From: Eukaryota sp. GEM-RC1
Taxonomy: Eukaryota
Length of the DNA stretch: 64,000 nucleotides
Direction: 5' to 3'
NCBI GenBank assembly: GCA_040285855.1
Contig: JAUFOQ010000003.1
Span: forward strand, 1 to 64,000
How positions within the stretch are numbered: the stretch's first letter is position 1; every line of letters begins with the position of its first letter. Positions 7,378 through 12,383 of this stretch are shown here, in pieces. Under the pieces are notes generated by a model. The model did no database searches, was not told the DNA's origin, and saw only the letters and a program-made list of their open reading frames with translations. The position numbers and the translations under genes are program-made.

Positions 7378-8647
7378 TGTTTACACGTGCTTGATTGAAT
7401 CTCTTCACAATGACATTCAGAGCACTGAGCAGAAATCACTTTCTGTCATCACCGTTTCCGGCCATCAGAAAGCTTTGTTTCGATTAAACAGTCGGGTTCG
7501 CTTTGTCCGTTACAGTTCTAGGTTGATCTTTAATTGCACAGAAGTTATCCCAACAGGTCCAGCTTTGCCAACAGCCCAGAGTTGCCTCCAAGCCGTCGAC
7601 TCCACCTTCACTGCCAGGGCCTCCATACAAGACCCCTAGAGCCAATCCTTATCCCGAAGTTACGGATCTATTTTGCCGACTTCCCTTACCTACATTATGC
7701 TATTGACCAGAGGCTACACACCTTGGAGACCTGATGCGGTTATCGGTACGGACATTGATGAAGTACTCGCCCCTAGATTTTCAAGGGCCGTGAAAGATAC
7801 ACCAGACACTACAATTAAGCAGTGCTCTTTCCGCGTTACCTCCATTTCTCCAGCTAAGTTGATTCCATGGACGCTACACAGTTAATAAGAAAAGATAACT
7901 CTTCCTGGGATCCTTCCCGGCATCTCTAAGTTTGATTGTGTTACCACTGCACACCCATCAATGGTGCAGGAATATTAACCTGCTTCCCTTTCCACGTGAT
8001 AGACATAAATGCCTCTCTCCTGAGTTAACCCGCGTGTTAGGACCGACTAACCCATGGCAGAATACCTTTACCATGGAACCCTACTCCACTTCGGTCAACA
8101 AGATTCTAACTTGTTTATTTGCTACTACCACCAAGATCTGTACTGGAGGCTGCTCCAGTCCACCTCACGATGAACCTTCAACGCAACCCCCATTACCTTC
8201 CAACACATTGAGGCATCAAATACCTCAATGGACATGTATAGGTGGCATACTTTAGCGCCATCAATTTTCAGGGCTAGTTGATTCGGCAGGTAAGTTGTTA
8301 CACACTTCTGAGCGGATTCCGACTTCCATGGCCACCGTCCTGCTGTCTAAATGTATCAACACCTTTTTGGGGTCTAAATGAGTACACACTTAGGCACCTT
8401 AACGTGACGTCCGGTTCATCCCGCATCGCCAGTTCTGCTTACCAAAAATGGCCCACTAAGAACTCATATTCAAACGCCACAATCACAAAAGTATTGCAGA
8501 GTGTCTTGCCCATTTAAAGTTTGAGAATAGGCTAAGAGCATTGCGCCCCTAGTACCTCTAATCATTAGCTTTACCGGACAAAACTAACACGAGCTCCAGC
8601 TATCCTGGGGGAAACTTCGGGAGGAACCAGCTACTAGCCGCTTCGAT

Positions 8648-11600
8648 TTTTTTTTTTTCCCTTCATGACACAAACTTTCAAAAGACAAACTCGATCTCTT
8701 CGTTTGGCTTCTTCCTCTGAGAAGCTCCCTGACAAGCCCTCTGATCCTCCTTCGGGTGTTGCCAAGAAAAAACCTGCTTCTTCTTCTTCATCTAAAAAGA
8801 AGAAACCTCCTCCTTCTACTTCTTCTCTACGCGGAACGTCTTCCCCAGAGTGTGTTGTATCTTCTAACAAGCTTTTAGCAACCTCTCATGATGTTTCCGC
8901 AGTTTTAGAGGAAGGAAAAAATCTTCCTCATCTACCTCCTCTACTTCCTCTTCCTCCTTCATTCCTGTACTCAATTCATCCTCTACAAGACCTCCTCCAT
9001 CGGTTAGAAGCAAATCCTCTTCCATTTCTACAAATGTCTCTCCTGAAAAACACGCGTGTTTTGACACGTGTGTTGAAAATTTAAATTCTTCCTCCTTGTA
9101 TCCTGTTACTTGTCCTTCATGTGATTCCTCCTTAGGTACTAAGAAAGCCCTGTACCAACATTTCAATGGGGGCAAGTGCCCAAATGATTTTGTTCCGTCC
9201 TCTTCTTTTCTCTCTCCCTACAATCTTTCTTTCTGTCCTGTTGATGGTTGCTCAACCATCATCACAAAATCGAAAGCTGGTTTAACAGCTCATATTACCA
9301 AGATGCATGGTGATTTGCCTACTGGTGTTCAATTCGATTTTAAAAATTCTAGTTCTTTCCCTTCAAAATCTTTTGGTTCTAATTTGTTTGAATTTTCAGA
9401 TGAACTTTTTGTTTCTTTTTGTGAGCATATTTTTAAAACTGCTCCTTTTCTTTTCCAGTTAAGAAGTCCTTTTTGATGTACTTAACATCATTTGTTCTGC
9501 TCCTTTATCTCTTGAATCCAAAGCACGCTGGATTCTCCTTGCTCTTCCTTGTCTCTTTGCCAAGGGTAACTGTAATTCTAACTTCAAGAATTCAGTTTCT
9601 TTTTGTCGGCAGAGGATTTTTCTTTCTTAACCCCTCAAGTCTCTTCTTCTTCTAAGTCTTGTTCTTCTACTCGTTCCATGAAGTTGCTTCGTGATGGTGC
9701 TATTTCCAAAGCTTTTGATGTGCTGCTGAGAGACCCCTCTTCTCAGCTTTCTTTTCATCTGACACATTTCAAAAGTTGGTTGATCTTCATCCATCTGGTC
9801 CAAATCTGACCAATTTGGTTGAACCAGCTTCTTGTTCGTTTAGTTTTTCTGCTGAATCAGTGGTCTCTGCTATTCGCACTTACCCCAAAGGTTCTGCTGG
9901 TGGTCCTTTTGGCTGGACTTTGTCCCATTTTCCTGCCGTGTTGTCTGCTGATTTAAAAGAAATTTTGGTTTTTTGTTTAACAGCTTTTTAAACAATTCTT
10001 GCTCTTCTGTTCTGTCTTCTGTTTTGACTTCCTCTAAACTTCTTGCTCTTTCAAAACCCAATGGTGGGGTAAGACCTATTGCTGTATCTGAACTGTTTCC
10101 TCGGATTGTTGCTCGTTTCTTGGTTAAGAAGCTTAACTCCGATGTTTTCCGCAAATCTGGCCAGTTTGGTGTTTCATGCCCAAATGGTTCCGAAGCTATC
10201 GTCCATTATCTCCGTTCTTTGCGTTTCTCCCATCCTAGTTCTCGAATTATTTCTGTTGACATCAGGAATGCTTTTAACTGCGTTGACCGCATCCAGATGC
10301 TAAAGGCGGTCAAACAGTTTCCTGATCTACTTCCTTTTTTCTTTTGGAGTTATAGTACTCCTTCTGATTTGTTCTTTGACAATCATTGTCTTTCTTCTTC
10401 TCAAGGCGTCCGTCAAGGAGATCCTCTTGGTCCCTTTCTTTACTCTTTGACCACGCTTCCTGTTCTTTCCTGGCTTAATTCTCTTTCTGGTGTTTCTTGT
10501 GTAGCTTACCTGGATGACACTTATATTGTCATTGATTCTGATGTTGATTCTTCTGACCTTTTGAATCAGTTATCGCAAAAATATGCTGATCTTGGTCTGG
10601 ATCTTAATCTTGACAAGACCAAAATTTTTGCGACCTTTGACAATTTTGTTGCTTTAGGATCTCCAATTGGAGATTCTGCCTTTGAAAACGTTGGCCAAGA
10701 GTGCTTCCTCTTTCCTTAAAAACTATTTCAAAGTTGCCCGTTCAAGCTCAGCTTCTGTCGTACGTTACTGTATTAACTCAAAGTTGATGTATTGGGCTAG
10801 AACAGTGTCTGCTCCTTCTTCCAGGTTGCCCTCAAATTATTTTTCCAAGAACTTCTTTCTTGGATTTCTTCTCTTTACAGACTGCTATCCCTTATCCTGA
10901 TTTACTGTCCTTTCCTGTTTCTCTTGGTGGTTTTGGTTTGGCTGATCTTTCCTTAATTTGTGAGATTCCTAATGCCGTTTCTTTGTTTTCCACCCAGTTG
11001 TTATATTCCTTCCTTATATTCTTTTCCGTCTCCTATTGTAAAACTTACTTTGTCTACTTTAAAACCTATTCTTTTAGACTCAGATAATGCTTTTACCTAA
11101 GGGTGCTCCAGAAAAAACTAACTAGGATCTTCTTTTCAGATCGTGCTGAAATCTTTGCTTCTTCGTTGCCTTCAAATCTTCTTTCTGTCCATAATGCTTG
11201 CCAGTTACCTTTTTCTGGTCGTTTTCTTTCTCTTATTCCTTCTTGTCGAGACCTTACTCTTCAAGACTCCTCCCTCAGATGGATTTGCCGTCATCGTCTT
11301 CTTTGTAGTCAGGACATTGTTTCTTGTAATCTTTGCTCTTTTTCTTCGGTTGATGCTGGTCACAGCTCAAATTGTAACAGCTGTTCTCGTCATCGTACTT
11401 TTAGACATGACGAGATCAAGAATCCTACTGCCGAACACACTTCTTTTGCCGTTGAATTCAAATTGAAGCTTGGTGCCGCTTATGGGGTCATTGACTTGTT
11501 TGACCCCACATCTAAACTTGGTTTGGATGTTGCTGTGGTTGGGGGGAATGGTCATCTCCCTGACTATGATTTGGCCCATGCTGAATCACGTAAGTGGAAC

Positions 11601-11860
11601 AGGTATGGGAAGTTTAGACCTGGATTAATTTCTGATCTAGTTCCTTTGATTTTTTCAATTTTTGGTGGTTTGTTTGAGGAAACTATTGCTTCTTTGAAAT
11701 CTATTGGAGCTGATTCACTTATGGATCAGATTCATTGTATTTTAATTCGTAGAGGTGAGAGTATTTCTTGTTTGTATCAAACACTGGCTAAGCTTCGCTC
11801 AGCTGGTATTTAGTTTTAATTTCTTATATTTTGCTATTTGTATTGATTTACCTTAATAAA
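8648..11860 (+). mobile_element. Near full-length CRE-like (REL endonuclease) non-LTR retrotransposon inserted antisense in 28S site A (family A)
   Basis: 12-bp TSD AGCCGCTTCGAT at 8636-8647 and 11861-11872; the site is empty in unit 2 (23931-23942). Starts with a T-run, ends AATAAA. Confidence 0.93.
8665..11813 (+). pseudogene. Single-ORF retrotransposon protein (Zn fingers, RT, CCHC, REL endonuclease), frameshifted
   Basis: CPSC...H and CPVDGC...HITKMH fingers; SAGGPFGW, RPIAVSE, QFGV, DIRNAFN, GVRQGDPLGP, YLDD; CNLC...HSSNC...RHD...DVAVV...ESRKWNRY...PLIFSIFGG. Confidence 0.9.
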
Positions 11861-12383
11861 AGCCGCTTCGATGAGTCTTTCGCCCCTATACCCAAATTCG
11901 ACGAGTGATTTGCACGTCAACATCGCTGCGGACTTCCACCAGAATTTCTCCTGGCTTCATCCTACTCAGGCATAGTTCAGCGGCTTTCGGGTCGTATCCG
12001 TACTGCTCATACGCGGATCTCTTTACAAGAACCGGTTGGAGTTGCAAGCCGAAGCCATCACTCCATGAAATTACTTTCATTGCGCCCTCAGGTTTTTACA
12101 CCCTACGACTCGCAGTAAAGATACACTCCTTGGTCCGTGTTTCAAGACGGGACAGTTGGACCCTTTATATTGGAGTCTCGGCCGAAGCCGTATACCTGCC
12201 TCCAGAAGAATGTCAATGCCAAGGCTATAACACCACTAACAACCGAAGTCATCAATGGCTACCTTCCTCAACACATTCAAACTCCCAAAGGCACTCCAAT
12301 TCCGACAACCGAAGCTGTCTACTGTGGGGGGCCAACCGCTTATCCTATTAGTGATTTCAGGTACTTTTAACTCTCTCTTCAGA

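Follow-up and report, generated by a model that had tools for sequence, protein, structure and literature searches.

The LSU rRNA gene and its antisense insertion

The window analysed here comprises positions 1 to 64,000 of contig JAUFOQ010000003.1 of Eukaryota sp. GEM-RC1 (64,000 nucleotides, GenBank assembly GCA_040285855.1). Its first 33 kb form a tandem array of ribosomal DNA (rDNA) with about 12 kb per unit, beyond which it contains degenerate repeats and one long terminal repeat (LTR) element. The small-subunit (SSU), 5.8S, large-subunit (LSU) and 5S rRNA genes of the array are all encoded on the minus strand. One LSU gene is interrupted by 3,213 bp of T-rich DNA (8648-11860), flanked by two copies of a 12-bp target, and this insertion, a non-LTR retrotransposon with a restriction-like endonuclease (RLE), is the element under study. 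The taxonomy entry lists the host as an unclassified eukaryote, which we take to be a free-living metamonad of the Skoliomonas group. The element and its target sites comprise the following features:

8636-8647, plus strand: left copy of the 12-bp target-site duplication (TSD)
8648-8664, plus strand: 17-nt T-rich 5' leader, upstream of the ATG at 8665
8665-11813, plus strand: coding region of about 1,050 codons, with at least ten frame switches as assembled
9111-9308, plus strand: two zinc-finger-like motifs, C2HC-type (9111-9179) and C2H2-type (9234-9308), by pattern match
9952-10716, plus strand: reverse transcriptase (RT) core with YLDD, Pfam RVT_1 (E 4.9e-20)
11325-11810, plus strand: CCHC knuckle, RHD motif and restriction-like endonuclease, by motif, profile match to R2 structures and fold search
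11814-11860, plus strand: 47-nt T-rich 3' untranslated region ending in TAATAAA, without a poly(A) run
11861-11872, plus strand: right copy of the TSD
23931-23942, minus strand: empty target in the neighbouring rDNA unit (LSU nt 889-900; Rfam positions 934-945)
7343-7356, minus strand: empty canonical R2 site in the inserted unit
22635-22648: empty canonical R2 site in the neighbouring unit

The 12-mer AGCCGCTTCGAT is found in the window at 8636, 11861 and 23931 only, twice around the element and once in the uninserted unit. The duplication extends in neither direction, and its strict size is 10-12 bp, because the first A and the last T could be element ends; terminal repeats are absent. The target corresponds to host LSU nt 889-900, 1,300 nt upstream of the R2 nick position, and to positions 934-945 of Rfam model RF02543 (counted on the alignment), where it lies in the conserved LSU core and equals the consensus at nine of 12 bases. 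As the rRNA genes are on the minus strand and the coding frames of the element on the plus strand, the element is antisense to its host gene. The original prediction, made from the sequence alone, had described a retrotransposon of about 3.2 kb with zinc fingers, RT and endonuclease, a 12-bp TSD at about LSU nt 890-900, some 1.3 kb upstream of an empty R2 site, opposite orientation to rRNA transcription, a 17-nt T-rich leader and an AATAAA end without poly(A), all of which is borne out by the features listed above.

The site itself could already be known, lying within or being equal to the 126-bp duplicated target of the rotifer element R9 and reached here by an unrelated clade. The R9 target presumably precedes the R2 site by about 1.4 kb, and the distance between the present target and the R2 site, which is 1,300 nt in the host, about 1,345 nt in the Rfam model and 1,574-1,579 nt in two metagenome LSU genes, overlaps this assumed position. 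However, R9 derives from R2 and has a stagger of 126 bp, whereas the window element has a 12-bp duplication and matches R2 weakly (E 1e-5), and we regard a shared site as doubtful.

Coding region, domains and clade placement

The longest stop-free frame of the element on the coding strand spans 255 codons and at least ten frame switches are distributed over 8665-11813, so that the single open reading frame (ORF) of the original prediction is not present as assembled; the frameshifts, like the second LSU insertion site described below, had been overlooked. We infer that the element encodes one protein from a single ORF of about 1,050 codons and that most of the frameshifts are long-read assembly errors, which explain them better than decay. 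The ATG of the window element is also the start of two other copies (P0173 and P0174, on a 90-kb contig), and five of its frame breaks are spanned by gene models of other copies. Break positions differ between copies, several breaks lie in or beside homopolymer runs, and the stop-free in-frame stretches retain all catalytic motifs. The residues that P0123 encodes for 10686-10719 are absent from every window frame but match those of an older relative located at 40.9 kb. The rDNA units of the array also differ from each other by gaps, amounting to 7 per 1,993 bp in the LSU gene and 34 per 5,248 bp in the spacer, with quieter stretches of 0 per 1,350 and 5 per 5,164. Five ORF pieces of the window gave no exact-sequence match in the protein collection.

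Read across the breaks, the protein starts with a Ser/Lys/Pro-rich stretch, which is followed by the two zinc-finger-like motifs, the RT, the thumb and the endonuclease with its CCHC-RHD motif. No zinc-finger or Myb family was detected at Pfam cut-offs in the N-terminal frames that were scanned, a frameshifted region. A profile of 63 relatives aligned with solved R2 proteins from the RT through the endonuclease (positions 237-929 of 973, E 1e-44), and the predicted structure of another copy (predicted local distance difference test score, pLDDT, 81.7) had R2 as its best Foldseek match (E 6e-16, 14-17% identity); both profile and fold matches were ranked R2, then LINE-1. The single-sequence search returned R2 at E 1e-5 and group II intron RTs at E 3e-6, and because the element is thus no closer to R2 than to group II intron RTs, it is not assigned to R2. 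The RT, the C-terminal CCHC and endonuclease motifs and the TSD without terminal repeats identify the element as an RLE non-LTR retrotransposon.

Within this group, the sequence motifs make membership of the CRE clade likely. The CCHC-RHD block is an exact fit to the endonuclease motif pattern published for SLACS/CRE (PMC12857005; here and below, articles are cited for the portions of their text that were covered). Among the 120 matches listed, one is named after a family, the SLACS ORF2-like protein P0031 (37%), and the atlas matches belong to unnamed RT clusters. Zinc fingers located N-terminally of the RT agree with CRE and are common to other RLE clades, so they are not diagnostic.

Other copies and a second LSU site

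Clusters and length-limited searches, whose output is not a census, yielded nine gene models that are at least about 90% identical and lie on six contigs, of 2.55 Mb, 1.84 Mb and, in four cases, 42-100 kb; none of the models is full length (0/9). The 2.55-Mb contig also carries the window's own genes. Flank information is available for three of the five other contigs, and in all three the flank is rDNA on the same strand as for the window element. P0123 opens with 42 residues of antisense LSU translation. The first four residues of P0001, combined with a GT donor, have a single match in the rDNA unit, which lies in the LSU gene on the same strand; such a match was also obtained in 4/1,000 shuffles. 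P0172 starts in the intergenic spacer, which is joined directly to element base ~40 via the 5-nt overlap AAACT. In contrast, another CRE-like family of GEM-RC1 has 46 members, and all 15 of those listed (15/15) are located on contigs longer than 1.8 Mb. These sequence contexts support a link of the family to rDNA, and exact specificity for the first site is probable.

A second insertion site, close to the 3' end of the LSU gene, follows the R2 site at a distance of 680 nt; it is presumably near the site of an Anopheles RT element and the I-CreI homing site. The inserts found there, and older fragments that include relatives of them, are as follows:

5637-6670, plus strand: unit 1, three tandem antisense inserts between four 12-bp target copies
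6076-6415, plus strand: unit 1, 5'-truncated endonuclease-coding piece
21539-21962, plus strand: unit 2, two tandem antisense inserts between three 12-bp target copies
40581-43325, minus strand: scrambled older remnants, 78-86% identical to the element and 83% to the second family, located outside intact rDNA

The 12-mer of this site, CCTGTCTCACGA, is present in four copies in unit 1, of which one has a mismatch, and in three copies in unit 2, enclosing a total of five antisense inserts with 12-13-bp duplications. These inserts are of three kinds, namely a 54-66-nt piece, an element of about 335 nt with an unrelated head of 90 nt, and the 5'-truncated endonuclease piece, and all of them end in ATAATAAATA at one and the same base. 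The ~335-nt insert and the endonuclease piece have a 245-nt tail in common, and the encoded endonuclease end is 35% identical to that of the first-site element (E 3e-13). At least three insertion events at this site are implied, because two of the insert kinds are common to both units. This pattern is that of target-primed insertion at a fixed site and represents the strongest sign that the lineage targets LSU rDNA, while its bearing on specificity at the first site is that of an analogy. A related family and its non-coding partner likely insert in the same manner at a second LSU site.

The ~335-nt non-coding insert (21617-21950, 5727-6062) is similar to short interspersed nuclear elements (SINEs), and A- and B-box-like motifs were noted by eye in its 90-nt head. 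Neither ARAGORN nor Rfam detected a tRNA in this head, and a tRNA origin is not claimed. The head and the element ends fold no better than shuffled sequences, and no ribozyme is claimed. The shortest insert (21534-21560, 5632-5658) opens with an inverted target flank; the hairpin thereby formed suggests that DNA synthesis snapped back at the 5' junction. The fragment of the second family had no match among proteins of at least 194 residues, the range searched, which is weak evidence. Beside the array, CRE-like fragments of several families, scrambled and accompanied by a decayed rDNA spacer piece, occupy 32826-33128, 35600-37470, 40570-44820 and 54950-55630.

We hold with reasonable confidence that the element is an RLE non-LTR retrotransposon, likely of the CRE clade, that is inserted antisense in the LSU gene and likely targets one conserved site, and it probably represents an undescribed CRE-type, rDNA-targeting family. 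Several observations weigh against this reading. With respect to the clade, the later endonuclease motifs deviate from the SLACS/CRE pattern, with 14 residues between RHD and E as compared to 19-33, VID in place of R/KPD, and the last D after 10 instead of 12-14 residues. The phylogeny that had been called for in the original prediction was run as a FastTree tree of 123 RT stretches, in which the family forms an isolated branch; its 123 rows are search hits alone, one of them labelled SLACS-like, and include no CRE, R2, R4 or NeSL references. The proposed CRE affinity accordingly draws on the motifs and the nearest named hits and gains no support from a tree with reference clades. With respect to the site, the first LSU position provides a single exact junction pair, and the exons of other copies bound the position loosely. 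Of the rDNA-specific lineage originally proposed, the association with rDNA is upheld by all three informative flanks (3/3), and the exact specificity depends on that one pair. The spacer join of P0172 could reflect either loss of sequence from an inserted unit or insertion away from the site, the older fragments (36.9-43.3 kb) adjoin the decayed spacer piece without LSU flanks, and the near-identical copies could derive from one insertion copied together with its rDNA unit. With respect to the coding region, some breaks are common to copies (P0173 and P0174 at ~8917; P0001 and P0123 near 10770-10830), as could result from systematic read errors as well as from real decay. Furthermore, the two quieter rDNA stretches show little noise (0 per 1,350; 5 per 5,164), and the bridges provided by the gene models could in part be predicted introns.

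Some of these observations would be expected if a CRE-like element of low target preference had landed once in rDNA and unequal crossing-over had multiplied the unit, without any site-specific family. The copies are nearly identical, two others have the same start, one is joined to the spacer and not to the site, and older fragments are found outside intact rDNA. However, none of the nine close gene models has a non-rDNA flank, with only three others being informative, and a mobile non-specific family should leave young dispersed copies, as the 46-member family does. As a related family has also inserted repeatedly at another LSU 12-mer, we consider a single landing unlikely. A family that once targeted the site and is now dead, its frameshifts being real and its copies kept through duplication of rDNA units, would explain the ten or more frame switches of the window copy, the absence of a full-length product among the nine gene models and the breaks common to copies. 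It is equally unlikely, given that other breaks differ between copies and several are in or beside homopolymer runs, that the in-frame stop-free stretches keep every catalytic motif, and that the flanking rRNA sequences contain indels of a similar order. An assembly chimera, conceivable in a noisy region in which one SSU copy is seemingly patched with foreign sequence, is highly improbable in view of the perfect duplication at both ends, the exact empty site and the rDNA copies on other contigs.

The remaining features of the window include, in the array, a 5S rRNA gene in every unit's spacer:

2329-2448, 18217-18336 and 30254-30373, same strand as the other rRNAs: 5S rRNA genes

The SSU copies at 13211-14994 and 25281-27063 differ at 86 positions, 74 of which are in nt 800-1400, while the internal transcribed spacers and the LSU 5' end are identical between the same units. 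The second SSU copy (25281-27063) is nearer to generic eukaryote sequence at nt 800-1400, likely through polishing with foreign reads. Beyond the array, the LTR retrotransposon (45200-52007) encodes a gag-like ORF, a protease-RT-RNase H region and an integrase, with 104-bp repeats at 45201 and 51904. The region 57169-62124 contains an ORF for a Ulp1-type protease (E 3.9e-13) and a multicopy 430-residue ORF followed by a 211-residue ORF (12-member cluster), possibly representing a transposon.

Proposed mechanism and comparison with known systems

The proposed mechanism is modelled on R2 and on the junctions; what is observed are the ends of the element, its duplication and orientation, its domains and the rDNA surroundings of other copies. 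One protein of about 1,050 residues would bind the site through its zinc fingers and nick the rRNA-sense strand at GCGGCT/AGTAGC, and the freed 3' end would prime reverse transcription at the AATAAA end of the element. A second nick, placed about 12 bp from the first on the opposite strand, would then give rise to the duplication, as a 3'-overhang stagger does in the R2 model (PMC6895275). At both LSU sites, the primer would end in a T opposite an A at the element 3' end. Because the element is antisense, R2-style co-transcription with pre-rRNA is ruled out and it would require its own transcript, independent of pre-rRNA. Read-through of this transcript into the flanking target could pair with the nicked primer, which would explain the precise 3' end without poly(A), and the T run at the 5' junction may represent an initiator or an untemplated addition. 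The expression route independent of RNA polymerase I (Pol I) that had been predicted for the element is therefore implied by its orientation and is not new in kind, as the planarian elements LIN9, LIN24 and LIN26 are also antisense in 28S. A more far-reaching interpretation is offered tentatively, as a possibility that we would not expect to hold in full. In this scenario, rDNA targeting evolved independently within the CRE clade in a protist lineage, in which two related and active families each aim at their own LSU site. Neither site would have been described before, both families would insert antisense with staggers of 12-13 bp, and one of them would mobilize a SINE-like passenger. A compact protein, about 1,050 residues long, would then write into a near-universal rRNA site that is not that of R2, while being expressed without Pol I co-transcription.

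If the proposed reading is correct, this CRE-type family of a protist would be evidence of a further origin of rDNA targeting, in a clade that branched early. As the first site is in the conserved LSU core, the protein would be a candidate to replace R2 in gene insertion work. The two endonucleases, which are related but have different targets within the same gene, would furthermore allow a direct test of how specificity changes, and the antisense insertion poses a testable question on promoter use and on double-stranded RNA formed with pre-rRNA.

Wider searches used a junction pattern consisting of the target followed by an A/T-rich tail. This pattern identified 34 metagenome loci, including 31 plain LSU variants, two insertions and one locus at a contig edge; none of the 34 matched any of 174 collected proteins, and no similar junction was found among them. 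The two insertions, in metagenome LSU genes at L002:852-1540 and L008:200-462, are located two bases from the inferred first nick, start after U and end in G. These ends resemble those of group I introns, and Rfam made no call at threshold. In viral contigs, the pattern had no matches and no relatives of the element were found. Literature searches, with Repbase and Dfam outside their scope, turned up no element of the CRE type within LSU rDNA, a result that does not prove that none has been published. The covered portions of PMC10946416, PMC3849761, PMC13580325, PMC12222951, PMC13188248, PMC13708176 and PMC7650587 describe no CRE element in rDNA; according to PMC13580325, the supplement of Fell et al. 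2025 includes CRE elements, and it may bear on novelty. A word search of the main text of PMC11316075, on free-living metamonad genomes, returned no retrotranspos-, rDNA or rRNA. The rDNA-specific retrotransposons described in the literature surveyed, as far as covered, are from animals (R2, R8, R9 and R5/LIN).

Among the matches listed, the closest relatives from another species are members of a CRE-like family of Eukaryota sp. TZLM1-RC (P0002, P0005 and P0127; 41-43% RT identity), the sister relation of which to the element is not resolved in the tree. In contrast to the element, several TZLM1-RC proteins have an RNase H domain (P0005), and their gene models contain no rDNA-derived stretch. 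In P0005, P0127 and P0128, an RNase H-like domain precedes the zinc fingers, and the gene numbers of these relatives are adjacent, suggesting that they occur in tandem arrays.

The animal 28S element R2 provides the best structural match, with the same RT-thumb-endonuclease layout and the same host gene. It differs from the element in sequence (14-17% identity), site and orientation; no Myb was detected in the scanned, frameshifted N-terminal frames of the element, the duplication of which is 12 bp. Identity with R2 was rejected, as the canonical site is empty and the insertion is 1,300 nt upstream of it and antisense. R9 of Adineta vaga is likewise of the endonuclease type and inserted at a non-R2 28S site. 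Because R9 derives from R2, occupies another 28S site and has a stagger of 126 bp (PMC5035012, PMC12203849, PMC4838377, PMC6895275), its identity with the element, which has a duplication of 12 and not 126 bp, was also rejected. The planarian elements LIN9_SM, LIN24_SM and LIN26_SM (R5/LIN, NeSL clade) resemble the element in habit, being of the endonuclease type, 28S-specific and antisense, the orientation following from the junctions in S6 Fig of PMC4640811, so that antisense 28S targeting is already known in another clade. When mapped on the host LSU, the targets of LIN24 and LIN26 precede the R2 site by about 90 nt, and that of LIN9 follows it by about 510 nt. Besides clade and sites, these elements differ by their T-rich tails, and identity with LIN9, LIN24 or LIN26 was rejected since the target positions differ. 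The match to a described family that the original prediction had left to be checked was thus found with none of R2, R9 and LIN9/24/26.

The known targets of CRE-clade elements include spliced-leader genes. With the members of this clade (CRE1, CRE2, SLACS, CZAR, Cnl1, MoTeR and FoTeR) the element shares N-terminal zinc fingers, an RT and a C-terminal endonuclease, which is compact in the element, and it differs from them in being inserted in LSU rDNA, as opposed to the telomere-repeat targets reported for the clade (PMC12857005).

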